A stretch of 64,000 nucleotides of DNA from a virus. The stretch covers positions 11,803-75,802 of IMG/VR virus record IMGVR_UViG_3300030119_000552; one strand, given 5' to 3'. The translations under genes and the position numbers were made by a program. The notes beneath the pieces are model-generated. The model ran no database searches. It had not been told where the DNA came from and worked only from the letters and a program-made list of their open reading frames with translations. Shown here piece by piece: positions 2,078-33,085 of this stretch. The first letter of the stretch is position 1, and the number at the start of each line of letters is the position of its first letter.

Positions 2078-2542
2078 ATGAGTCTTGTTATATTTATATG
2101 TCCAGAAAATCAGTATCTATCAAAGTATTGTGAAGCATTTTACAATTATATAAACTTTGGTTACATTAAAACACACTCATGGGCAAACCAATCTGGATCA
2201 TATGTATCACGCAAACGAGTTGCGATGTGTAGACTTCCAATGAAGAAAAACATTCCATCTAAAACTCAAATGAAAGCAAATGATGTTACACTTGAGAGAA
2301 TTTATAGAAAAGTTATAAGCAACGATTGTTATGATCACTCGTACTATAAGTTAGAAGAACAAGAATTAGAGGACAATGCAGTTGTTGTGTTTTTAACTGA
2401 CAATCGTAACCCTCAGAGTGTTCCCTCGTATTTAAGCAAAACTGATGTTATAGTTTGGAAGATGTCAAAAATAAATAATATAACCAATTCAAAATGGGAG
2501 TTGATTGAGAAACTGATAAGGAAAATGCTCAAGAAGGATTAG
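2078..2542 (+). CDS. hypothetical protein
   Basis: ORF; AAGGAG at 2065-2070 favours a start at 2075/2078. Confidence 0.55.
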   Translation: MSLVIFICPENQYLSKYCEAFYNYINFGYIKTHSWANQSGSYVSRKRVAMCRLPMKKNIPSKTQMKANDVTLERIYRKVISNDCYDHSYYKLEEQELEDNAVVVFLTDNRNPQSVPSYLSKTDVIVWKMSKINNITNSKWELIEKLIRKMLKKD

Positions 2543-2894
2543 ATGGTGTATATACTATTCTGTGTATACCTTCTATTTCCTTTCCCTTACCATCCAACTT
2601 CACAGTCTTGTCAGATATTCTTGCAACTTGTTTTATTTCAGTTGAACCTAATTCTTCTAGTTTTGTTTTTAGTGCTTGAGCAGGATTAATTGGATTTTCT
2701 CCACGGGCTGCTTTTCTTTTGCTGAGTGATTCGTTATGCTTTTTTGAAGTTTCATCTGCTGAAAAGTAGACTACTTCTTCTGCCAAGTCGTTAATTTTGT
2801 CTTCAAATATTGGCTCGGCAATTACGTGTGTAATTCCATTGTCTTTGAGATACTTTGCCAATCCCTCTTTTGTAAAGTAATGCATGATGTTCAT
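2529..2894 (-). CDS. hypothetical protein
   Basis: 121-aa ORF downstream of the 900-aa gene. Confidence 0.65.
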   Translation of the reverse strand: MNIMHYFTKEGLAKYLKDNGITHVIAEPIFEDKINDLAEEVVYFSADETSKKHNESLSKRKAARGENPINPAQALKTKLEELGSTEIKQVARISDKTVKLDGKGKEIEGIHRIVYTPSNPS

Positions 2895-2918
2895 GCGAAT
2901 ATATATGTATGTATTTTT

Positions 2919-5621
2919 CTAATCGTACAAATTGCCTACGATTTCACCAAAATTTCTCATAATAATACCAGCACAAGCATTTGCTTCGTTCTCAATGTCA
3001 CTTCCTGTTTGTCCACTATCCACTTCAAGAACACCTAATTCGTTTTGCTTTTGATGAACTAGTTCGTGTGCAATGCTTCTGCATATATCTGCATATGCTC
3101 TGCCTTTTGTATATATAGAAATCTCATTTGTGTTTGGGTCATAGCAAGCAGCCGTCATATTCTCATGTCTTTTTTCCAAAAGTTTTACCGATACCTTTTC
3201 TTTTAATTGCAATGCGTTTTTTGCAAACTTGATAAACTCATGAACATTGTCTTTGTTCATTGCGACTTCGTTTAATGCTTCTTTTATATATTTCATATCT
3301 GGATGTTTGGTATCTGAATTGTTTTTGGAAATTATTTTGTTGTTAGAAAAGGATTCCGCAGGAATATCATTGCCAAGATACATTGCTTTGAATTCCTTGA
3401 ACCATTGTTCAAATGTAAAGTCTCCGATTCGCAATCCATAGTCGTGGATAGTTTGTTCTTTAAAGTGATTTGCAACTCCACCTATAAAGTGATAATAACT
3501 TCCACTTTTTTGTACTTTGACATTTGGAAATCCTTTGTCTTTTAACATTTTGGAAACTTGTGCACCTGATTTAGGTGATGACTTCATATTGATTTCTTGT
3601 ATCTTCATTTCGTTTATATTTGCTCCACCTGTTCTAACAATTTCACGAAAGAACCAACGAGTCCACTCTCCGAGTTTACCGGGTCCTCTCACTATATATA
3701 GTTTAAATGCTTCTGCAAATGCTTCCTCTGCATTTGTATTTCCGTAACTTGTGATGTGTTCTATTGGTATTTCTTTACCGGGACCAACCCAACGATCACT
3801 TAACTTTGTTGCAACTTCTTCTCTGTTGTATGTTGAATAAACTGGTGTCATTTGTAATGCCTTGAACTTTGCTTTGGTCTCGGCGTTGGTTTCTTTTTTA
3901 TCAATGACTTTTAATCCTGCTTTTCTTTTGTAAAGTCTTTCTCCGTGTTTATTAAAATACTTTTTAACATACTCATCAACATCTTCAAAATCTATTGCTA
4001 CCTTTTTGCTTTTGATTGTATCTTGCCAATGTTTCTTTGCGTTAGATGGAAGTTCACGATACCAAAAACGATGACCGAGTTCATGTGTGAACGTATCTTG
4101 TGTCATTCCTGCTCCGTATAACTTGAGCATATCTTTGTTCATATAATACTCACCGCTTACCATATCTCCACCTTCACCCGTTAATCCGAAATCGATATCT
4201 ACGGTCAATCCTTCTATGCATTTTCCAAATCCTGCTTTTTGGATTTTCTTTGACCAACTTTTGATTCCATCTACAAGTTGCTTGAAACTTCTTTCACGAC
4301 TTGCTTCTCCTTGTTCACTTCCACCTTTTCTTTTGAAGTTATGAATAACCAACTTGACTGGTCCTATTTGTGCTTGCTCAATTGGTTTTTCTCGTTCTTG
4401 GTCACCATTAATTGCAATGTACTGAAGAAGTGCGTTTATACCTTCACGAAACGCCGCACGATACCTTCTAATATTTTTTTCTCGTTCTCTTGCAAGTATT
4501 TGTGGACTTACACGATGTTTTTTAGTTTGAAAGTCCCACATCTCTGGAAAGTTACCACCAAGACTTGTAACTGCTCTCCAGCATTTTTCACGAACTTCTT
4601 TTTCTTCCCAAGTTTCAACTCTTTCTTTTGAACCAATCCATTTGTATTGTAAAAAGAATTTGTAAACCCAATCTTCAAAGTTTTGCTGAAATGTACCAAA
4701 TGCTCTTCTTACTTTTTTAAAGTCTTTGATTGTTTGTGGGTCTTCACTATTATCACCGATTTGCTTATATGCTTTAGTAAGAACTCTTAAATCCTTCGAC
4801 CACTTTTTAATAGAGTTAGTATCAACCTTAATTGTGTCTTCCGAAATGATTTCCGATAGATTCCCTTTTTGTATATACATATATAAATTTGCCAATCGTT
4901 TTTTAAATTTCTTTAAATACTTTTTGTCGATATATGTTAGAAAGTCACGATCAAAGAATTGTACATCTATTACCCACGATTGAAATGCTTTGTAACTCTC
5001 CAAACGTTTCTTTTTAAAGTCATCTGGTAGATTTTTCCACATACGAACAATCTGATTTTGTCCTTCTTGGTAGTATGCATTAAATTCTTCAGGTGTATTG
5101 TAGTATCCTTCTATATCTTGTGTATCTAAGTACTTGGCACTTGTTTTGCTTAAACCACGACTACGATACCTTAAATGATCAAGAAAGTGTATATATTCGT
5201 GAATGAATGTATCCTTATCAAGACGAGTATCCATATACTTGCCATTATAATCACCAATTAGATTTGCATTTACAATTACACCTTTAAATGATATTCCACC
5301 GACTTTCAAACTTTTGTTTGTAAAACCACCGGCGATTGTTACTCCACCACGTGATGTACTTTTTGTTGGAATGAAAAATAATACCACTTCACTTAAAGAC
5401 GGAAAGTTTTTGTCTATGTCTGTTCCTCTAAGAGCAACACCTTTCCATTGTGTAAGTGGAATGAAAGGTTTATTTACTATACTATTCTCACCTTCACCTT
5501 CTAATTTATCTTTATGTTTAGTTAAAAACCGTACCACTTTATCATATGCTTTTTCGGCAATACCTGTATAATATAGGTCATTCTCTATATTTGCTTCTTT
5601 AATGTGGGTACTATTCATCAT
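2919..5621 (-). CDS. Large multidomain protein with three zincin-like HExxH metallopeptidase motifs (polyvalent/internal virion protein candidate)
   Basis: HEYIH..EEFNAY, HELGH..NAEEAFAEAF, HELVH..ENEANA. ATATTTAT motif upstream; start may be 5618. Confidence 0.7.
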   Translation of the reverse strand: MMNSTHIKEANIENDLYYTGIAEKAYDKVVRFLTKHKDKLEGEGENSIVNKPFIPLTQWKGVALRGTDIDKNFPSLSEVVLFFIPTKSTSRGGVTIAGGFTNKSLKVGGISFKGVIVNANLIGDYNGKYMDTRLDKDTFIHEYIHFLDHLRYRSRGLSKTSAKYLDTQDIEGYYNTPEEFNAYYQEGQNQIVRMWKNLPDDFKKKRLESYKAFQSWVIDVQFFDRDFLTYIDKKYLKKFKKRLANLYMYIQKGNLSEIISEDTIKVDTNSIKKWSKDLRVLTKAYKQIGDNSEDPQTIKDFKKVRRAFGTFQQNFEDWVYKFFLQYKWIGSKERVETWEEKEVREKCWRAVTSLGGNFPEMWDFQTKKHRVSPQILAREREKNIRRYRAAFREGINALLQYIAINGDQEREKPIEQAQIGPVKLVIHNFKRKGGSEQGEASRERSFKQLVDGIKSWSKKIQKAGFGKCIEGLTVDIDFGLTGEGGDMVSGEYYMNKDMLKLYGAGMTQDTFTHELGHRFWYRELPSNAKKHWQDTIKSKKVAIDFEDVDEYVKKYFNKHGERLYKRKAGLKVIDKKETNAETKAKFKALQMTPVYSTYNREEVATKLSDRWVGPGKEIPIEHITSYGNTNAEEAFAEAFKLYIVRGPGKLGEWTRWFFREIVRTGGANINEMKIQEINMKSSPKSGAQVSKMLKDKGFPNVKVQKSGSYYHFIGGVANHFKEQTIHDYGLRIGDFTFEQWFKEFKAMYLGNDIPAESFSNNKIISKNNSDTKHPDMKYIKEALNEVAMNKDNVHEFIKFAKNALQLKEKVSVKLLEKRHENMTAACYDPNTNEISIYTKGRAYADICRSIAHELVHQKQNELGVLEVDSGQTGSDIENEANACAGIIMRNFGEIVGNLYD

Positions 5622-10871: not shown

Positions 10872-12302
10872 TTAAAAAGCAAAGAACTCTTTGCTTTTGT
10901 TTTTCTCGGAAGGTTGGTTTGGTGATTCTGCATCGTCAACTCTTGTTTTAGCAATGATAGCATAATCTTTTTCTTTTTCTATTCCGATATATTTTCTATC
11001 GAGCATTTTAGCCGCAATACAAGTTGTTCCACTTCCAACAAACGGATCAACAACAACATCATTTTCACGACTTCCAAGTGTTATTAAATAACTCATTAGT
11101 TCAATGGGTTTAACGGTTGGATGAACATTTTGTTTTTCCGTGACAAATCTACCAGTAACATCGTGGTCGATTTTGCTATTGCTCATATCTTCTGCATTTC
11201 TTCTTCCTGGCATTGAAGAACTTTTCTTTTTAGGAAGATGTTCAAGACCTTTGTTTTTTTCTGCTTTGCTTGCTTTTGCAACAATCATAAAAGGAAAAGT
11301 CTTTTGAACACTTTCGGGCAATTTGTGTATTTGTGATTTCCACCAAGAATCTAAATCGTAAAAACGAGAAAACGATCCTTCGTCTCCGTAAGTTCTTCCG
11401 GCGGGTTTGCCTGTGCTTTCTTGCCAAATACCACCCGATCCACTTCCACTATCTGTGTGTTTTCCTTTGCTTCGTTTTACTCCGTCATTAAGTACATCGT
11501 CTTGTATAATTAAATTGGCTGCGAATCTTCCGTCTGGTTGTTTATATTCACCTGCACCACCTCGTTCAAAGCACTTGGTTTCTTTTTTTCTGTCGGAAGT
11601 CCACATATCCTTTCCTTCACGTGGTGTTGGATTTTTTGCATATGCTCCACCATCTAAACTTTCGTCCGTTGGAATTCTACAATCGTCTAACCAAGTAATG
11701 CCTTTGCCATTTTTCATTGCTTGTTCAATATAAGATGATTCTTCAATAGGTTTCATTGCAACAAGCACAACTTCTACCGCAGGTTTAGGTTGATAACCTA
11801 CATAAGACCCATCAAGTTCTTTTGCTTCATCAGATGTTGCTTCAAACTTTTCATATTCCGATTTGAATGAATCCTCTTTTCGTCCTGCGAGTTTTCCATT
11901 CCATTCGGAGTTTTGTTTCCCCATTCCTTTGACTTTTCCTAAAGATTTTGCTTTTACTTTCAGTTTTTTATCAACTGCCCTACTAACATTTGTTGCTTTT
12001 GGAAATCCTGTTGCGTATGTCCAATAAATCGGAGTGAATCCAATATTGAATCCTGCGTCTTCTAAACGAACCATCATACGACTTTGTACATCTGAACGTG
12101 GTGCTGACATAACGAAACAGAATCCTCCTGGTTTCAAAACTCGTAAACACTCTTGCCAAATTTCTAATGCAGGAACTGCTTTGTCCCAATCACGATTCAT
12201 AAACGAGTATCCATAAGGTGGGTCTGTACAAACTAAGTCTACCGATTCGTCCTCAAGTTTCTTGAGAACTTTTAAACTATCTCCATTTATTATTTTATTC
12301 AT
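10872..12302 (-). CDS. DNA methyltransferase (DPPY, beta class)
   Basis: MNKIINGD start at 12302. TDPPY, HPTVKP, DPFVGSGTT. Confidence 0.92.
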   Translation of the reverse strand: MNKIINGDSLKVLKKLEDESVDLVCTDPPYGYSFMNRDWDKAVPALEIWQECLRVLKPGGFCFVMSAPRSDVQSRMMVRLEDAGFNIGFTPIYWTYATGFPKATNVSRAVDKKLKVKAKSLGKVKGMGKQNSEWNGKLAGRKEDSFKSEYEKFEATSDEAKELDGSYVGYQPKPAVEVVLVAMKPIEESSYIEQAMKNGKGITWLDDCRIPTDESLDGGAYAKNPTPREGKDMWTSDRKKETKCFERGGAGEYKQPDGRFAANLIIQDDVLNDGVKRSKGKHTDSGSGSGGIWQESTGKPAGRTYGDEGSFSRFYDLDSWWKSQIHKLPESVQKTFPFMIVAKASKAEKNKGLEHLPKKKSSSMPGRRNAEDMSNSKIDHDVTGRFVTEKQNVHPTVKPIELMSYLITLGSRENDVVVDPFVGSGTTCIAAKMLDRKYIGIEKEKDYAIIAKTRVDDAESPNQPSEKNKSKEFFAF

Positions 12303-22368: not shown

Positions 22369-22400
22369 TTTTTAGTTTAAAGTTATATTTATATATTCAC

Positions 22401-23132
22401 ATGGAAACAACAGAACTTAAACAATTGATAAAAACTTGTATTTCTGAACTATTATCTGAGGAAGGTGGGTTTAAATATAATGTAGCAAATTTAAGTTTAG
22501 ATAAAGCAAGAGATTATGCTGAATCCGAGTTTATTAATGCAGGACAAACATTAAACGAAGTAATTCCAGATTTTGATAAAAATTACATGAATCTTCAAAA
22601 GGCGTGTAAATCTGCTTTAGATATTCCACGAATTGATATGCCTGTTATTGAACCGACTGATATGAAGTTATTCACCAAAAAACTTGCTCTTGGTCATATT
22701 GATATTTTTAAACCTTACAAAATTGATTCTTTTATTGGTAGATTTCCAAAAGGATTGAATAAAAAAGTAGGTAAGCAATGGGTAAATCTCGGAATGCAAG
22801 ATGGCAACCCAAAAGATGATGTTATCAAAGGTAAATGGACAAAGTTTCCTGCAAAGAATTTAAAACCAACTCAAAGTCAAATTTGGTTGGAAAAACTCGT
22901 TGGTAATATCATTCAATTTGGTGTACCATTAGATGGTTCTCCTATTACCAAAGCATCTGTTATTGCTTCACAAGAAGGTTATATATTAGACGGACATCAC
23001 CGTTATGGACAGGCAATGCTTGCTAACCCACCATTAAAGTTGTCAGCACTTTATATACCATTAGACATTAAAACACTACTTGCAATGGGTAGGTCATACG
23101 GTAATGCAATAGGCAATAAACAAAAAGGTTAA
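22401..23132 (+). CDS. ParB/Srx-like domain protein
   Basis: LKPTQSQI...ILDGHHR. N-terminal LKQLIK...LLSE leader; ATATTTAT upstream. Confidence 0.7.
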   Translation: METTELKQLIKTCISELLSEEGGFKYNVANLSLDKARDYAESEFINAGQTLNEVIPDFDKNYMNLQKACKSALDIPRIDMPVIEPTDMKLFTKKLALGHIDIFKPYKIDSFIGRFPKGLNKKVGKQWVNLGMQDGNPKDDVIKGKWTKFPAKNLKPTQSQIWLEKLVGNIIQFGVPLDGSPITKASVIASQEGYILDGHHRYGQAMLANPPLKLSALYIPLDIKTLLAMGRSYGNAIGNKQKG

Positions 23133-23482: not shown

Positions 23483-23513
23483 CTTTTTTGTAATAGATAT
23501 ATATTTATTATAC

Positions 23514-25360: not shown

Positions 25361-26914
25361 ATGACTAAACCAACTTGCTCAGACGAAACTTGCTCATATC
25401 CAGAGACGTGTGACTGGAATAATATGTGTATGGCAGACCAATTAGAAATAGGTAATGAAGTAAGAATGTATGAAACCTCAATTGATAAGATTGGGGTTCT
25501 TTTGTGTCATGGTTTTTTATCAAAGCACGAACAGATGGTCCCACTCAGCAATTATATATACGAAACACTTGGTTGGGAAACAAGTTTGGTTGAACTAACT
25601 GGACATGGTTATGATGAAGAAAATATTACAAGTGCAACTTGGTCTGATTGGGTGGATGACGTAAAAACCAAGTATTTGAATCTCAAACAAAGATGCGATA
25701 AAGTTTACATGATTGGATTTTCGTTGGGTGGTTGTATATCTGCATATGTTGCAAGTTTGAAAAGCATCAAACCCGAAGGACTGATAATCATAAACGGAGT
25801 GTTTGGTGTAAAGAATGTTTTCAATAAACTTCTTCCTGGTGTTATGATATATAATAAAGTTTGCAAAAAGTTAAAACTACAAAAGATTATGTTGGAATCC
25901 ATTACCAATGATAGTGAGGCACCTGATTTGAACCAACCTCTTGTCAATTTATATGCTACAAACGAACTTCGTAAGATGTCCAAAATTACAGGCACTATAT
26001 TGAAAGACATAAGATGTCCCACTTTCTTGATTCAGGAATATAACGATCCAACTGTATTTTATGGAAGTGGGAAACGAGCATTTAAAAAATTGGGTGCAAC
26101 CTTCAAAAGATTTCACACAACAAAACTGAATACCCACCTTACCATTTACGACAAAGGAATGGAGTGTAATGTATTTTGTAAAATTTTGGAGTTTCTGAAA
26201 GATGTTGAAAAAGACACATTTCTAAATATTGCTCACCGTGGTGCAAGTGGTGATTTTACCGAAAACACATTACAGGCATTTGAGGAAGCAATTCGACGTG
26301 GGTGCGATGCTATTGAATTTGATGTACAACCAATTGGTAATCAATTCCGAGTATTTCACGATGATAACTTTAAAAGAATGTTTGGTGTTGATAAAGATTC
26401 AAATAAAATAAAAGAAAGTGAAGTAACCAAGTTGGTTTACCCAAATTTAGAAAAAATACCCACACTACAAGAAGCACTTGATTGTATTGCAGGTAGAGTT
26501 CACATAAACATTGAGATAAAGAGTTCAGAAGTTGCTACAAACATTGCTAATATTACAAGAACTTATCTTAAAAAACCAGAGTGGAACAACAAAGACATAG
26601 TACTTTCAAGTTTCAGTAATGCCACTGTTAATATGCTAAGAAGACATTACAAGGAATTAAAGTTATCGTACTTGGTTTACGATCACTATTGTAATTTAAA
26701 AGATATGAAAGTTTTGAAAAGCAATTACTTTAGATATAATCTTCATTCTCTGAATCTTCCGTTGGAAGGTATTACACCTGAAATTGTAGAGTATTGCAAC
26801 AAAGATAATATACAGATATATGTATATACCGTAAATGAAACTAAACAAATTCGTTATTTAAGAGAACTTGGTGTAAGTGGAGTATTTACTGACTTTCCAA
26901 GATTGATACGATAA
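25361..26914 (+). CDS. alpha/beta-hydrolase (esterase/lipase) fused to glycerophosphodiester phosphodiesterase
   Basis: N-terminal LLCHGF, GHG, GFSLGG, D..H. C-terminal IAHRGAS, ENTL, IEFDV, HDD, NIEIK, YTVN, GVFTDFP. Confidence 0.9.
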   Translation: MTKPTCSDETCSYPETCDWNNMCMADQLEIGNEVRMYETSIDKIGVLLCHGFLSKHEQMVPLSNYIYETLGWETSLVELTGHGYDEENITSATWSDWVDDVKTKYLNLKQRCDKVYMIGFSLGGCISAYVASLKSIKPEGLIIINGVFGVKNVFNKLLPGVMIYNKVCKKLKLQKIMLESITNDSEAPDLNQPLVNLYATNELRKMSKITGTILKDIRCPTFLIQEYNDPTVFYGSGKRAFKKLGATFKRFHTTKLNTHLTIYDKGMECNVFCKILEFLKDVEKDTFLNIAHRGASGDFTENTLQAFEEAIRRGCDAIEFDVQPIGNQFRVFHDDNFKRMFGVDKDSNKIKESEVTKLVYPNLEKIPTLQEALDCIAGRVHINIEIKSSEVATNIANITRTYLKKPEWNNKDIVLSSFSNATVNMLRRHYKELKLSYLVYDHYCNLKDMKVLKSNYFRYNLHSLNLPLEGITPEIVEYCNKDNIQIYVYTVNETKQIRYLRELGVSGVFTDFPRLIR

Positions 26915-26941
26915 AGTTGTTTTAATATATATTTATTTCGT

Positions 26942-28498
26942 ATGGATGTTGTCCAACACTATTTGTCGGGATTTGATTTGCACGAAGTTACTTCTAATTT
27001 AAAAGAATTATTGCACGAAGCTGCCACTACAAATGCTTCGGATGCCGAGGTTGCTATTTGTGTTGCGTACAACATCAAACAAGGTAAAAAAGAAGCAGAT
27101 GCTCTTAAATCAGCAGGTGTAGACAAAGCAACTTGGAAAAAGATTAAAGCAAACAAAGCAGTATACAATGCAGGTAAAAAAGTTGCGAAAGGATTAAAAA
27201 ACATCGGTGGATCATTAACATGGTCTGGTAAAACATCTGCTACTACATTTTACAAAAGTGGAAAAAAAGAAGCAGGTAAAGCAGATATAATTGGTAATAA
27301 TCGCAATAGACTTTCTGTAAAACAAGCAAGCAGTTCTGCAAAAAGTGCTCAACTTGTTAGTGGTACGTCTGGTGAAGCAGTTGGATTATTCGAATATGCG
27401 GTAAAGCATTTAGAAGCAAGTGGAAGAAAACTTGCAAATGATTCCGAGTTAAAAGATTTATTTGACATACTTGAAAAAGAAATGGCAAAAGCAGTTCGCA
27501 ATGACATCAATGTTGAAGTTGGAAAGGGTAAAAAAGATTTTCGTGATTGGGTAATTGCCGACAGTGGAAGGTATGATGAAGTTAAAGCAAAAGCAAAAAA
27601 TGCGACTGACGAAGAAATCAAAAGACATATTCGTGCAGAACTTGCGGTTGCAAATGCTATATCTAATGCCGATGCTCCAAAACTTGAAGGTGATTATATA
27701 AAAGGAGTTAAACCTATTACTCAAAAGCAGATTTCTAAAATGAGAGCAGATTATATTGGTTCGGATATGAAGATTGGTGATGTTACTATTGCAAAAGACT
27801 ATCTCGAAAAAGCAAATGTTCCGTCTGAATTATTAACCAAAGAAGCACTTAGAACACAAATAATGGATTTGATTGATGTGGCATTAAAAGCAGATTCTTG
27901 GAAAAATCGTATTCGTGAAATTATACAAAACAACTCGGAACTTAAAAAGTGGATCGTTTACGAGGCTGCAAGTGGTCTTGGAAAGTTTACAGGTAAAGCA
28001 TCTAAAGGTGGAAATTATTTTGGTGATAATGTTGCAGTTGCAAATAAAATACTCGTATTTGATGCTAATGGTGTAAAAAAAGTACATGACCTGTACAAAT
28101 GGTCGCAAAGCAACGGAGATTTGTGTAATAATGTTGATATAAGTTTCAAAGGAAGTGGAAGACGTAAATTTGTAAAATTTGGATTGGCTGCTGAATCAAT
28201 AGAAAATGATATTAGTAATATCATCAATGAACAATATTTTGAATTTGAAAAACAACTTAAAGTTTTGAACGAAGGAAAAGTTTGGGATACCATAAAAAGT
28301 GGTTTTGATTCTGCTTCGTCTTGGGTAAAATCTTCTTATGAAAAAATAGAAGCATTAATTTTACAATTCTATGAAAGTGTAATAAAGAAAGTTCTTGATT
28401 ACTTTTGGGAACTATTTCAAAAAGGATTAAGTCCAGTTTTAGAAAAAATGGGATATATTATGGAAGGAGTTGTTTCTTTATCTGTTCCCATTTGGTGA
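26942..28498 (+). CDS. Putative PD-(D/E)XK-fold nuclease 1 (D...SxK variant) with leader and amphipathic tail
   Basis: AEVAI...KADII...LSVKQ...QLVSG...EA, VYEAASG..KF; paralog of the next gene. Confidence 0.55.
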   Translation: MDVVQHYLSGFDLHEVTSNLKELLHEAATTNASDAEVAICVAYNIKQGKKEADALKSAGVDKATWKKIKANKAVYNAGKKVAKGLKNIGGSLTWSGKTSATTFYKSGKKEAGKADIIGNNRNRLSVKQASSSAKSAQLVSGTSGEAVGLFEYAVKHLEASGRKLANDSELKDLFDILEKEMAKAVRNDINVEVGKGKKDFRDWVIADSGRYDEVKAKAKNATDEEIKRHIRAELAVANAISNADAPKLEGDYIKGVKPITQKQISKMRADYIGSDMKIGDVTIAKDYLEKANVPSELLTKEALRTQIMDLIDVALKADSWKNRIREIIQNNSELKKWIVYEAASGLGKFTGKASKGGNYFGDNVAVANKILVFDANGVKKVHDLYKWSQSNGDLCNNVDISFKGSGRRKFVKFGLAAESIENDISNIINEQYFEFEKQLKVLNEGKVWDTIKSGFDSASSWVKSSYEKIEALILQFYESVIKKVLDYFWELFQKGLSPVLEKMGYIMEGVVSLSVPIW

Positions 28499-28526
28499 TA
28501 AACTTTTAAAGTATATATTTATTGTC

Positions 28527-30152
28527 GTGGACATTGTAGAGCATTTTATCAAAAATATTGATTCATCTTTTGAGGTAGATGATATTTTATGCGAACTTGC
28601 ATTACATGATTTATTCAAAAGAGACAATAAACAAAGGTTTATTGATAAGGTTGATAACAACGAAATGCTTGATGATAAAAATAATCCACTTAAACTAAAA
28701 AGTGGAACTACATCTTTATGGAATGATATGAAAAAACAACTTTTATCTGCGAAAGATAAAGACGGAATATCTGATTGGGGTGGTCGTGGTGATACTAAAA
28801 TAAAACAACTATTTGGTGTACCTATCAGTAAAATAGGCAAATCACAGAATGATATGAGTGGTGGTGCTAGTAGTGGAAATCCAAGTGGTGAAGATTGGGA
28901 AGCAATGATTGCTATTGGACTTGCCACTATTGAAAACAAAGACCCGTCAAAAGAAGTGCCAGATGAATGGTCACGAATAGAAAGAAAAGGTTTTTGGAAT
29001 AGTGATTTTAATCGTGACATTGCCGAAAAACTTGCAACTGCATTTAAAAAGAATGGATACAATCCAATTTCTCAAACAGGAAGTGGAAAGGGTGGTGCTG
29101 GTGTATCAGGTGAGTGGGGAGATATTTATAAAGAATACGGAAGTGGTTCTATGAACAAAACTCCGAAGACTGACATTAAAGGTGGGTCAAAGAAAATCTC
29201 TTTAAAGAAAGCAGGTGGTTCTCAAGCAATGAGTGCCAAGCAAGCAGAAGCAGCCGCAACATTTGGAGCAGCCGTTAGAATGTATGGCAAGAATTATCCA
29301 AGTAGTGTTAATACTATTTTAGATAAATTTAAAACTTCTGTGTTGGATTTATCTGATAGTAATTATCGTGGAAGCATTGATGCTCTTGAAAAAGATATTA
29401 AAAGTAGTCAAGGTGATCCAAAGAAAATGAGAAATTTAAAACCCGTGATCGACAATTTAAAACAAGCACGTGACGATGGTAAGTTTATTACTTCGGAAAT
29501 GAATCGTGTATTTTTGTCTGATTCTAAGTTCAAAAATTTATTTGTATTTGAAGCAGCCACCGGTTCTGTTAAATTTGGTGATACATCAGAAAGTCGTGCT
29601 GATACAATGGTTGAAATTGATACTGATAGTGGTAAGATTACATCTCAATATAAAATGGACACACCAAATGACATTTCTTCTCTTGCCAATCAATACAAGT
29701 TTTATTTGTCATTCAAAACAAGTGGTAATAGTGTTCCTTATATGGCACTGCGAGGGAATATGGAACAAGACCCAAAGAAGGTTACGGGTTGGATGAAAAA
29801 TCAACTAATGGAAAATAAAAACTTTTCAACGATATGTCCAACTTTTTTCAACATCATTAAAGAAGGATTTGAACAAGATGCTTTTGGTAAAAGACTTTTA
29901 AATGAATCAAGTTTTCAAAATCTAAACGAGTGGCAAATGCTAAAAAAAGTTCGTGACGGAATTACTTCTGTTAGCAACAAAGTAAAAGACCGTTTTGTTA
30001 AAATTTGGAATTGGATTTCTGAAAGAATATCCAAGGCATTTGATTGGATCAAAAAACAAGGTGCAAGAGCATTAGAATATTTGCAAAAGTTTTTTGGAAT
30101 CAAACTTGACAAGTGTGGAATAAGTGGAAAGTTAGAACTCTTTTCAAAATGA
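28527..30152 (+). CDS. Putative PD-(D/E)XK-fold nuclease 2
   Basis: GTG start 4 nt after ATATTTAT. WEAMI...PKTDI...ISLKK...SQAMS...EA, VFEAATG..KF. Confidence 0.6.
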   Translation: MDIVEHFIKNIDSSFEVDDILCELALHDLFKRDNKQRFIDKVDNNEMLDDKNNPLKLKSGTTSLWNDMKKQLLSAKDKDGISDWGGRGDTKIKQLFGVPISKIGKSQNDMSGGASSGNPSGEDWEAMIAIGLATIENKDPSKEVPDEWSRIERKGFWNSDFNRDIAEKLATAFKKNGYNPISQTGSGKGGAGVSGEWGDIYKEYGSGSMNKTPKTDIKGGSKKISLKKAGGSQAMSAKQAEAAATFGAAVRMYGKNYPSSVNTILDKFKTSVLDLSDSNYRGSIDALEKDIKSSQGDPKKMRNLKPVIDNLKQARDDGKFITSEMNRVFLSDSKFKNLFVFEAATGSVKFGDTSESRADTMVEIDTDSGKITSQYKMDTPNDISSLANQYKFYLSFKTSGNSVPYMALRGNMEQDPKKVTGWMKNQLMENKNFSTICPTFFNIIKEGFEQDAFGKRLLNESSFQNLNEWQMLKKVRDGITSVSNKVKDRFVKIWNWISERISKAFDWIKKQGARALEYLQKFFGIKLDKCGISGKLELFSK

Positions 30153-31258
30153 AAAATATAATTGAGCACTTCTTAGAAAAAAATGTATCTGAGGCATATA
30201 ATATTGTTCCAAATTCTGTGGAAGAAATTGATTCACTCAAAAATACCGCAGTTGATATTGAAACTATAAAGTCGGTTTATTCTTATATATTTTCTAAAAA
30301 CTCTTCACTTGCAAACCCTATTGCAGTTAGTTCCAATTCGAAAGAAAAACACATAAAAGTTGCAAGAGACATTGCGGACGATTTCGATTTAAATTCACTA
30401 TCTAAAAAGTTCGGAGTTAAGTTAACGGCAGGTGACGGTTCACGTGGTCGCCGTGGTTCAAATAACCAAGGAACTGGGTTTGAGAAGGATCTTGTAGACG
30501 ATATAAATCTATTCATCGAAGAGGGAATTGAGTCAACGTCGTTCAAGTATCCATCTTTAATACAAGACTTGTATAAAGACATACTTTCCAAACACAAAAG
30601 CATTCAAGTTAATTTAGAGGGAGGTGCTAACACAAAACGACCACTTGAATTTACCGAGATAGGTGCTGTTATAGGTGGTACTGCAATTAACGTTGGTCAC
30701 GTGGTTACTGATGTTACTATAATCGGTGACGGAACTACATACTACTATTTATCTCTAAAAAGCTCAGGTACCGTCACCTTTTTCAATTGTGGTGTCAGAA
30801 AAATTTTAACAAAAGACCAATTTGAAAATGGAAAAATTACTAACAAAAATGGAAAAACAATTTTAGATATGTTTGGTATTGACGAGAAAAAATTTATTAA
30901 CATTTTTCAATCATATAAAGGTAAAACAAAAAAACGTAGTAAAAAAGAAACCGAGGATGTTACTTCCAAGGTAAACAAAAGATCTCTTCACAGAATGTTG
31001 CTCACTGGAATTGGATATGGATATTATATGCTTCATAAACGAGGAAAGAATGTTGAATACTATAAAATGAATGTGGCAAATCTTAAAAAATCTGTAAAAG
31101 TTAAGAAGGTGGTGATTCTATGGCCTGCTCCAGGTTCTGCAAAAAGAATTGATATTCAGATTTTAACTGACAAGTATGTGTTTAAGGTAAATATAAGAAA
31201 TAAACAGGGTGGTTTATATCCTACTCACATTATGTGTGATTATAGGTATATACAATAA
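30149..31258 (+). CDS. Putative PD-(D/E)XK-fold nuclease 3
   Basis: ATGA overlap with the previous gene. GFEKDL...VTDVTI...YLSLKS, C-terminal VNIRNKQGGLYPTHIMCDY. Confidence 0.6.
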   Translation: MKNIIEHFLEKNVSEAYNIVPNSVEEIDSLKNTAVDIETIKSVYSYIFSKNSSLANPIAVSSNSKEKHIKVARDIADDFDLNSLSKKFGVKLTAGDGSRGRRGSNNQGTGFEKDLVDDINLFIEEGIESTSFKYPSLIQDLYKDILSKHKSIQVNLEGGANTKRPLEFTEIGAVIGGTAINVGHVVTDVTIIGDGTTYYYLSLKSSGTVTFFNCGVRKILTKDQFENGKITNKNGKTILDMFGIDEKKFINIFQSYKGKTKKRSKKETEDVTSKVNKRSLHRMLLTGIGYGYYMLHKRGKNVEYYKMNVANLKKSVKVKKVVILWPAPGSAKRIDIQILTDKYVFKVNIRNKQGGLYPTHIMCDYRYIQ

Positions 31259-31288
31259 TTACTTTTTGTAAAACACAAAGATAGGTTC
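31259..31288 (-). pseudogene. Remnant 3' end of MTase gene (EPIFVFYKK*)
   Basis: Encodes the same last 9 residues plus stop as both MTases (31508, 33082); DNA nearly identical. Confidence 0.75.
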
Positions 31289-31462: not shown

Positions 31463-31507
31463 ATATATAATATAATATTATTATTATAATAAGTCAAGGT
31501 ATTTATA

Positions 31508-33085
31508 TTATTTTTTGTAAAACACAAAGATTGGTTCGTACTTGTGCAACTCTCCGTTTATTTGACAACAATTTTTGATTGTGGTTCTATCTCCACGCAT
31601 TGTTGCCATAAGCATTTTAAGAGTTTCAACATACTCAAGACCGTATTCTTGTAAAATGTTTTTGCTATCTTCTTCAAGTGGTATATATCCACCATCGTGA
31701 GTGATGTCCGCAATATTCCACAATAAATACCTGTCGTTTCTTAAATATTGAGATGCAGTTTTTAATGTGGGACGAAGAAAGTTTTCTTTCCAATCTTCGT
31801 ATGATGGAAACTTCTTGAAACTTTGTGTGTCATCTGATGAATATTGTTCACGATTAAAATAAGGTGGACTTGTAAATACTAAATCAAATGTTCCTTTATA
31901 CTTTTCAAATTCTTTGTTTCGGTGAATAACCTCACTTCCTTCTTGAAACAAGTCGTATGTATTGCGATGACCAAAGAACGGATTACCACCATTTGTTTTG
32001 TCGTTGAAAAAATCTGCTACATATTCGTATCTTGATTTGTTAAGTTCATTTATATAGTTGTCTGTATTTGGGTCTGTTCCAACATAATGTATTTGACGAT
32101 CATCTATGCTCATAGCACCAAGTATTCTTCCTCCCCATCCTGCACTTGGATCATATACAGTGAGATCATTTTTGTTTTCAATGTGGTCTGTATATTTTTG
32201 ATAAACGAATTTTGCAGTTAATGGTGGAAAGTTTACGGCAGGATGTCTTCCGAGTCCAAGACGAAGTGCTTCCATGGCCGATGGAAAGATAGTTGATGTT
32301 TTGTCGTAGTAACGAACACTAAATTTATATTGAGTTTCATCAAGTGTATCAAGTTTATCAAAGTCTGTATTAAAGTCTGTTGTTTTTTCTAAATTGCTGA
32401 TATTGTTGTGTTCAAGAAGGCCTTCTTTATACAACCGAAGTATTTGTTGAGCAGATAACAATAAATGATTTTCTTCATAGTCTTCAAACTTTCTTTCGGT
32501 GAAAAGTTCAATAATCCAAAAGTCATTGTCGGGATATAAATGTTTTTCTGCTATAAAGTTTCTAATCCAAGTTTCTCCATCGTTCGTTGGATATGGTACT
32601 TCATCATCGTTTTTTCTGATTGTTTTTCCGTGAGCAAAAAAAGCATCTCGTCTAATTGTTCTTCTCATTGTGACGTGGAAACTATCTCTTTTATCTGGAT
32701 CAACAAAATAGTCGTAAATGCTTTCTGAATGTGTACCGGTTTGCAATGCCATTTTCGTTTTAAGCATTGTTGGAAAAAACTGATCAATAACCGTTGCGAA
32801 CTTGTTAAAGTTTTTTATGATTGTGTTTGTTTTGTCAAGTTCATCAATATGTAAAAACTTGCTAACATCATATCTTTGTAGTTTATTAAATTGTGCAATA
32901 ATATCTTTTTCGATTTTACCACTTCTTGGTGGAATTCCTTTTTCATTCCAAGTAGTAACAATATAATCTCTTAAATCATCCAACCAAATTTCAAGTTCCT
33001 CTTTGCTTTTTAAAAGTAACTGATGGAAGGTTGTGTTTTGCTCCCAATCTACGAGGTTGTTTTTCTCGTAAAAATATTTCTTCAT
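31508..33085 (-). CDS. DNA methyltransferase-like paralog B
   Basis: Start MKKYFYEKNN (ATGA overlap). VNFPP, YDPSAGWGGRILG, GTDPN, FTSPPYF. Confidence 0.85.
   Translation of the reverse strand: MKKYFYEKNNLVDWEQNTTFHQLLLKSKEELEIWLDDLRDYIVTTWNEKGIPPRSGKIEKDIIAQFNKLQRYDVSKFLHIDELDKTNTIIKNFNKFATVIDQFFPTMLKTKMALQTGTHSESIYDYFVDPDKRDSFHVTMRRTIRRDAFFAHGKTIRKNDDEVPYPTNDGETWIRNFIAEKHLYPDNDFWIIELFTERKFEDYEENHLLLSAQQILRLYKEGLLEHNNISNLEKTTDFNTDFDKLDTLDETQYKFSVRYYDKTSTIFPSAMEALRLGLGRHPAVNFPPLTAKFVYQKYTDHIENKNDLTVYDPSAGWGGRILGAMSIDDRQIHYVGTDPNTDNYINELNKSRYEYVADFFNDKTNGGNPFFGHRNTYDLFQEGSEVIHRNKEFEKYKGTFDLVFTSPPYFNREQYSSDDTQSFKKFPSYEDWKENFLRPTLKTASQYLRNDRYLLWNIADITHDGGYIPLEEDSKNILQEYGLEYVETLKMLMATMRGDRTTIKNCCQINGELHKYEPIFVFYKK

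Follow-up and report, generated by a model that had tools for sequence, protein, structure and literature searches.

Three restriction-endonuclease-fold proteins with T4-type leaders in an uncultured marine T4-like phage: candidate nucleases for packaging in the phage head

Introduction

The internal proteins of phage T4 carry a capsid-targeting sequence, MKTYQEFIAE (PMC8442874), in which targeting depends on residues 4 and 7 and processing on residues 8 and 10, the prohead protease gp21 cleaving after L/I-x-E; one of the targeted proteins, Alt, is trimmed at both ends, and the system has been regarded as a way for T4-like phages to bring a variety of proteins into their heads (PMC9026906). 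In engineered T4 derivatives from the Black laboratory, EcoRI or staphylococcal nuclease fused to the tag was packaged and delivered (PMC9026906, PMC3012670). In T4 itself the cargo comprises small proteins whose fold is unknown, as well as an inhibitor and an ADP-ribosyltransferase. Here we analyse three adjacent genes, named P1, P2 and P3, found in a stretch of 64,000 nucleotides (hereafter the window) that corresponds to positions 11,803 to 75,802 of the IMG/VR virus record IMGVR_UViG_3300030119_000552, and whose products combine leaders resembling the T4 tag with a restriction-endonuclease fold.

The products of these genes resemble T4 IPI, IPII, IPIII and Alt in having short acidic leaders, hydrophobic near positions 4 and 7-8 and ending in hydrophobic-x-Glu, as well as in the basic character of the mature proteins, the adjacency of the genes in a variable locus and the presence of a gp21-family protease in the lineage; P1 and P2 could even be trimmed at both ends, like Alt. 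In contrast to the T4 internal proteins, the cargo is made of enzymes of 350-440 residues with a restriction-endonuclease fold, known here from sequence and models. As in the engineered T4 constructs, a nuclease would be carried in a T4-type head by an N-terminal leader, whereas the present arrangement seems to be a natural product of evolution that arose repeatedly among uncultured marine phages. No report of capsid-targeting leaders in marine T4-like phages was found in the literature. The T4 internal-protein system is known, and what is new is the restriction-endonuclease-fold cargo, the leader variants and how widely the system occurs in uncultured marine phages.

Results

The P1, P2 and P3 genes and their families

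The window belongs to a 75.8-kb record with a CheckV completeness of about 40%, derived from an uncultured marine T4-like myovirus. The record encodes a T4-type DNA polymerase (phrog_262) whose nearest cultured relative is that of Microcystis phage Mel-JY01 (47% identity), followed by those of T4-like cyanophages (around 33%). The three genes are arranged head to tail on the plus strand, with the following parts (pI, isoelectric point):

26942..28498, plus strand, P1 gene, 518 residues
26942..27019, plus strand, P1 leader of 26 residues, MDVVQHYL...LLHE, ending in L-H-E; predicted capsid-targeting propeptide
27020..28273, plus strand, P1 mature region, predicted restriction-endonuclease-like core (by homology to the P2 core), pI 9.4
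28274..28495, plus strand, P1 C-terminal helical tail of 74 residues, behind L-N-E
28527..30152, plus strand, P2 gene, 541 residues, GTG start
28527..28595, plus strand, P2 leader of 23 residues, (M)DIVEHFI...ILCE, ending in L-C-E
28596..29906, plus strand, P2 mature region, an N-terminal helical domain and a restriction-endonuclease-like core (AlphaFold2 model)
29907..30149, plus strand, P2 C-terminal helical tail of 81 residues, behind two L-N-E sites
30149..31258, plus strand, P3 gene, 369 residues, its start overlapping the P2 stop (ATGA)
30149..30193, plus strand, P3 leader of 15 residues, MKNIIEHFLEKNVSE
30194..31255, plus strand, P3 mature region, restriction-endonuclease fold (AlphaFold2 model)

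The original prediction, made from the letters of the DNA, had proposed that three genes at this position share an N-terminal leader, and all the features listed in it were found. One correction concerns the second gene, as P2 begins at the GTG at 28527 and not at an ATG; several public gene calls for P2 homologs also begin with V-D-I-V.

All three proteins belong to sizeable families of unannotated proteins. P1 has 57 homologs, all of them from metagenome or viral contigs, P2 has 367, and P3 has 461, with 796 clusters at 50% identity and a uniform length. Only P3 was named by PHROGs, as a member of the function-unknown family phrog_8438 (E 9e-68). Searches against Pfam, NCBIfam and PADLOC returned nothing usable for any of them; with Pfam at E values up to 1 there was no match for P1 or P3 and only weak unrelated matches for P2, and neither Endonuc-MspI (PF09208) nor R-HINP1I (PF11463) was matched by sequence. 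Profile searches of the PDB by sequence gave no match for the three proteins, and tblastn of P1 and P2 against 50,697 cultured-phage records gave none either, whereas the matches of P3 in cultured phages were leaderless cyanophage genes only.

The cores and tails of P1 and P2 were homologous in an hhalign comparison (probability 99.9, E 4e-32), and, as judged from this profile alignment, the two are paralogs. P3 showed no sequence kinship to either of them by hhalign (probability 1%), so that the shared fold is the only link between P3 and the other two.

The leaders are exchangeable and end in a cleavage-type junction

When the whole record was scanned in six frames, the core leader motif (I/V)(I/V/E)(E/Q)H(F/Y)(L/I) ahead of a long open reading frame (ORF) was detected only at the three P starts and at one spurious ORF. 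The same residues are encoded in the P1, P2 and P3 leaders by different synonymous codons, and therefore the similarity of the leaders has been kept at the protein level and does not reflect a recent DNA duplication. The leaders are acidic (pI 4-5.6; 5.0 for that of P1), in contrast to the basic mature proteins (pI 9.1-9.6).

In each of the three families the conserved mature N-terminus was found behind interchangeable kinds of leader. The type present in the window, MD(I/V)(I/V)(E/Q)HY..., of 15-26 residues, is one of several; others are ten residues long (MKTFSKFLVE, MQTFYEHLKE, MKSFTNFVSE, MLKFKEFLSE), have 20-34 residues of the form MSLQKYVRQLRP...QSFLTE, or reach 40 residues. Members of the P3 family are often leaderless, as in the cyanophage orthologs, which start with M-A-F-N-S-I-P. 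Despite this variety, the junction is conserved. In the P1 family, [L/I]-x-E directly precedes the mature N-terminus (A-x-T..A..E-x-A-I) in all 46 leader-bearing members (46/46), and in the P2 family a hydrophobic-x-E occupies the leader-end column in 114/114 occupied sequences, fusion proteins with a PAP2 domain included. Among 108 representatives of the P3 family, 16 were leaderless and 92 had a leader of 6-34 residues, with a final Glu in 89/92 and L, F, I, V or M two residues earlier in 90/92.

The marine 10-mers agree with the T4 tag at all four of its mapped positions. P3 reads MKNIIEHFLE, then KNVSE, and fits the T4 pattern with a shift of one residue, and orthologs of P1 start with MDVVQHYLSE.... 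ORFs that fit the strict 10-mer pattern are rare, 1-3 per genome of about 150 kb, and therefore the leader is not a general feature of these genomes. Given this scarcity and the synonymous codon differences, a leader acting as a DNA-level or translation feature was ruled out.

A modular tag should be found on the same cargo in different forms or not at all, and different cargo in one phage should share a leader; both situations were seen. Neighbouring unrelated genes of one phage use the leader style of that phage, as in the viral loci L090-L092, where four adjacent genes start with MI(K/S)L..(I/F)L.E. In many P2 homologs of about 720-760 residues (among P0088-P0179), a PAP2 phosphatase domain is placed after a T4-like 10-mer leader and ahead of the P2 core; a conserved L-x-E separates this domain from the core, which would suit a cargo that is cleaved into two parts. 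In related marine phages, T4-like 10-mers were also found on adenylate kinase, other P-loop kinases and a RimK-type ATP-grasp enzyme, on a cytidylyltransferase-like/DUF5824 protein and on small, very basic proteins (L018, L029, L080, L084, L027 and others), the genes for which are often clustered.

In the AlphaFold2 models of P2 and P3 the leaders appear as low-confidence, undocked helices and not as segments docked on the active site. The three proteins had been proposed to be zymogens activated by trimming of leader and tail. Removal of the leader is likely, whereas no sign of inhibition by leader or tail was seen, and the pattern of the leaders points to the T4 tag. These sequence patterns favour a capsid-targeting propeptide of the T4 type over a zymogen peptide as the nature of the leader.

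In one viral locus (L086), two adjacent genes at 1043-2455 and 2500-3699, one of them a P3 homolog, encode a common 40-residue N-terminal region (MDTLDKLIQEWSWRTEKGYPDL...DLTE), and a region like it heads some members of the P2 family (P0172, P0173, P0180).

C-terminal tails and the prohead protease

The presence in P1 and P2 of IINE/IIKE...LNE sites followed by a helical tail, also anticipated from the single sequence, holds across their families. The P1 tail is conserved family-wide, ends in TPSW or PIW and is preceded by L-x-E-G, at E444, in 39/39 sequences. In P2 an L-x-E was found at E460 and at E468, each in 117/118 sequences, and the tail that follows aligns with that of P1 by hhalign. 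In the P2 model the tail forms two helices, one of them 40 residues long, and its only structural matches were generic helical bundles. As both the leader and the tail are delimited by family-conserved hydrophobic-x-Glu sites, proteolytic loss of the leader appears likely and that of the tail possible.

A protease of the gp21 family (Peptidase_S77) is encoded by two close relatives of this phage, G001 and G002 (94.6 bits, above the cut-off), whose P1 proteins are 86% identical to that of the window, and also by three phages that carry P3 homologs (G006, G007, G009). The record of the phage itself lacks the head module, so that the protease is documented in the relatives only. In G002, the predicted major capsid protein (108309-109733) starts with MSEIGKLLKE..., which fits the strict 10-mer, and has a further M-S-E at residue 21.

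Fold and active-site residues

Alignments of each family revealed a small set of invariant residues, in agreement with the E...D...SxK core put forward in the original prediction. These are E36, K113, D115, S125, K127, E341 and K348 in P1 (39 sequences), E125, K214, D216, S225, K227, E241, E342 and K349 in P2 in full-length numbering (118 sequences), and E112, D188, S202 and K204 in P3 (49 sequences).

The AlphaFold2 model of P3 had a mean predicted confidence (pLDDT) of 90.2. Foldseek placed HinP1I at the top (E 2.4e-3, probability 0.96) and MspI second, and an exhaustive comparison with VIA-align gave HinP1I with Z 9.0 (174 aligned residues) and MspI with Z 8.5 (200 aligned), all the rest reaching 5.3 or less; third in this list, with Z 5.3, was the PD-(D/E)xK homing endonuclease I-Ssp6803I, and several lower matches were also PD-(D/E)xK nucleases. 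The model of P2 (pLDDT 84.4) matched MspI with Z 7.9 (184 aligned), HinP1I with Z 7.7 (181) and HhaI with Z 6.2 (157), over model residues 112-415, and MspI was also its top Foldseek match. In the P3 model E112 is part of a helix, D188 stands where a strand begins and S202-x-K204 belongs to the strand after it; according to the DSSP strings, D188 and S202-x-K204 of P3 and D216 and S225-x-K227 of P2 are placed as the fold expects. The counterparts in P1, whose fold was assigned by homology to P2, are D115 and S125-x-K127. Protein language-model neighbours of P3 included clusters in which 10-19% of the members carry Endonuc-MspI, R-HINP1I or RE_HaeIII, the share for Endonuc-MspI and R-HINP1I being 10%. 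When a profile of the P3 family was compared with 1.84 billion representatives, only strong family members were among the matches listed, and no bridge to named restriction enzymes appeared there.

The fold was accepted because two proteins unrelated in sequence converge on the same three enzymes, because the matches extend over most of each target chain and are separated by a clear gap from the next ones, and because the invariant Glu (helix), Asp (strand start) and Ser-x-Lys (next strand) sit where the fold requires them. Therefore, on the basis of these models, P1, P2 and P3 are PD-(D/E)xK restriction-endonuclease-fold proteins with a D...SxK variant of the active site, nearest to MspI, HinP1I and HhaI, as the prediction of nuclease-like proteins with an SxK variant had it. 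With these monomeric type IIP enzymes, which are the best matches of both models, they have in common an Asp followed, in the next strand, by a non-acidic residue-x-Lys. They differ from them in having Ser instead of Asn or Gln and a shorter spacing from Asp to SxK (8-13 residues), as well as in their extra N-terminal domains, leader and tail, and an adjacent cognate methyltransferase of the usual type was not apparent.

Cfr10I and NgoMIV had also been named, as enzymes that use D...SxK...E. Like these enzymes, P1 and P2 have D...SxK and then, in the next helix, a conserved Glu, K227 and E241 of P2 being 14 residues apart, and the spacing from Lys to Glu in Cfr10I and NgoMIV matches this. Neither enzyme was among the 50 structural matches listed for each model, and thus no specific kinship emerged; the nearest structures are those of MspI, HinP1I and HhaI.

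A proposed model of packaging, trimming and delivery

We infer from the leaders, the models and the comparison with T4 that P1, P2 and P3 would enter the phage head as nucleases, be processed by the prohead protease and leave the head together with the DNA, a reading to which we assign a probability of roughly 60%. The acidic leader would act as the T4 capsid-targeting sequence does, bringing the protein into the core of the assembling prohead, where the gp21-family protease would cut after the hydrophobic-x-Glu at the leader end and, in P1 and P2, possibly also at the conserved L-x-E before the tail, as in the processing of T4 Alt at both ends. The basic mature enzymes could then stay with the packaged DNA and be ejected with it into the host at infection. 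Once injected, they would most likely cut host DNA or other foreign DNA before the phage genes are expressed, this being the least secure step of the model. The phage genome itself might be spared by modification, for which the adjoining methyltransferase/hydroxylase operon is a candidate, by avoidance of the sites, or by both.

Several points weigh against this model. The leaders of P1 and P2, with 23-26 residues and a second site, are longer than the T4 tag, and the P1 protein of the window has Gly, not Glu, at position 10. No gp21-family protease was found in the 75.8-kb record itself, which is about 40% complete and without head module. Adenylate kinase, ATP-grasp and cytidylyltransferase-like enzymes would be atypical as cargo, which may hint at a different role of the leader. 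The Z values of 7.7-9.0 for the fold are rated as middling by VIA-align, and the Pfam matches of the neighbouring methyltransferases are under the cut-off (22.9 vs. 26.7 bits). Finally, the association of P3 with DUF6267 proteins, described below, suggests that P3 may serve in break-and-join or repair reactions and not in the destruction of host DNA.

Leaders were seen on restriction-fold nucleases, PAP2 fusions, DUF6267 proteins, kinases and nucleotidyltransferases. In a more general and tentative form of the model, to which we give less than an even chance, heads of uncultured marine T4-like phages would be pre-loaded by T4-type leaders with an exchangeable set of enzymes that enters the host along with the DNA and acts before phage gene expression. 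The nucleases of this set would cut the DNA of the host or of rivals at the moment of infection, while the phage's own genome would be protected by modification or by avoidance of the sites. If packaging is as proposed, T4 head loading would be a widespread and evolvable device for enzyme delivery, reaching beyond a few small proteins of E. coli phages; a function would be available for three large unannotated viral families (796 clusters for P3, 367 homologs for P2 and 57 for P1), and these would be the first natural restriction-type nucleases inside a phage head, natural counterparts of the engineered phage with tagged EcoRI. A further possible use of the leaders is as portable tags for packaging.

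Among the alternatives, the one that survives best is that the three proteins are not packaged and act in the cytoplasm, either degrading host DNA or forming with the methyltransferases a pair of the restriction-modification type, the leader and tail being autoinhibitory or regulatory. The leaders, however, swap between unrelated cargo and track the phage lineage, which is unexpected for a peptide fitted to one active site, they agree with the T4 tag at the mapped residues and have the gp21 cleavage motif at their end, no other Glu-specific protease is indicated, and in the models they are not docked on the active site. For these proteins the cytoplasmic function thus seems unlikely, even if it would suit the restriction-endonuclease fold with its invariant catalytic-type residues, the convergent methylase-like/hydroxylase operon kept beside P2 in the relatives, and the cyanophage P3 orthologs, which evidently function without a leader.

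A second alternative accepts packaging but not cutting, so that binding of DNA or of a host factor would be the sole use of the fold, for instance in condensation, end protection or as an anti-defence decoy similar to IPI. The mature pI of 9.1-9.6 is like that of the T4 internal proteins, T4 IPI is an inhibitor and not an enzyme, and Ser replaces the classic acidic residue of (D/E)xK. This last substitution is of little help to such a view, as N, Q or S occupies this position in the active enzymes MspI, HinP1I and Cfr10I as well, and no member among hundreds of diverged sequences of both families departs from the Glu/Asp/Ser-x-Lys set; we regard a purely binding role as improbable.

P3 as an accessory gene and its association with DUF6267

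The five closest relatives (L003-L007) lack P3 together with the 219-bp stretch that follows it, and in them P2 borders directly on the methyltransferase gene. In the window, the following feature begins right at the P3 stop:

31258..31288, 31-nucleotide copy of the 3' end of the methyltransferase gene (31507-31537), 94% identity

From these two facts, P3 is an accessory insertion between P2 and the methyltransferase gene, and the duplication looks like an insertion scar. The clustering of the genes and the presence or absence of P3 among near relatives resemble a variable internal-protein locus and in this sense support packaging in the head. That at least P3 might be a selfish free-standing endonuclease of the homing type, inserted beside the methyltransferase gene and with an incidental leader, is suggested by this absence, by the flanking duplication and by the third place of I-Ssp6803I in its fold list, but is very improbable for a large family of uniform length that is syntenic with DUF6267 at most loci, features atypical of homing endonuclease genes, and whose leader junction is clearly under selection.

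In 61 of 80 viral loci (L016-L095) the gene of the P3 family was found at 3.5 kb or less from a DUF6267 gene, and in some proteins (P0433, P0436) both are fused, one of the fusions also containing a cytidylyltransferase-like domain. No DUF6267 was found in the available sequence of the lineage of the phage studied here. Searches for DUF6267 gave no sequence match in the PDB and no paper. In sequence, its K-x-D-G motif resembles that of ligases, and DUF6267 itself bears a 10-mer leader in many marine phages.

Gene neighbourhood, start-site motif and palindrome avoidance

Upstream and downstream of the P genes the following features were located:

25361-26914, fusion of an alpha/beta-hydrolase (Hydrolase_4) and a GDPD phosphodiesterase, directly upstream of P1 and without leader
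26928..26936, plus strand, TATATTTAT motif, 5 nucleotides before the P1 start codon
28514..28522, plus strand, TATATTTAT motif, 4 nucleotides before the P2 start

The Hydrolase_4-GDPD gene is syntenic with P1 and P2 in 5/5 close relatives. On the 3' side of P3, on the opposite strand, lie genes for two methylase-like paralogs, a pyridoxal phosphate (PLP)-type enzyme, an Asp/Asn-hydroxylase-like protein and sugar enzymes. This methylase-like/hydroxylase operon is convergent with the P genes and stays beside P2 in the relatives.

The TATATTTAT motif sits 2-8 nucleotides before many starts. Besides that of P1, these include the start of P2 and, in the relative G002, those of several large genes with the predicted large terminase among them, at a distance of 4-8 nucleotides. 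That P1 and P2 have it in common with the terminase and other large genes was counted as support for packaging in the head. As judged from its position, the motif may act as a late promoter, from which mRNAs with almost no leader would arise, or as a signal for initiation. In the window, copies were also seen at 22384-22392 and 23500-23508, and those of G002 lie at 97417, 109813, 80312 and other positions.

In the whole record of this phage several palindromes were strongly depleted (observed/expected): ACATGT 0/12, CTGCAG 0/15, GGATCC 0/8, GCGC 2/17 and TCGA 75/240 (z -15). A similar avoidance was detected in the relative G002, and in G006 CGCG was counted 0/143. The avoided palindromes may be sites that nucleases of the host or of the phage recognise, and restriction by the host would yield the same pattern.

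A protein of 243 residues encoded in the window (22401-23132) begins with METTELKQLIKTCISELLSEE, and small proteins encoded beside the prohead protease gene of G002 (102501-106801) begin with similar helices (MKKSNLKDIIRTILQELEEE, MNKEISKLIKSTILEVLKEE); starts of this type are possibly a second motif for assembly into the head core.

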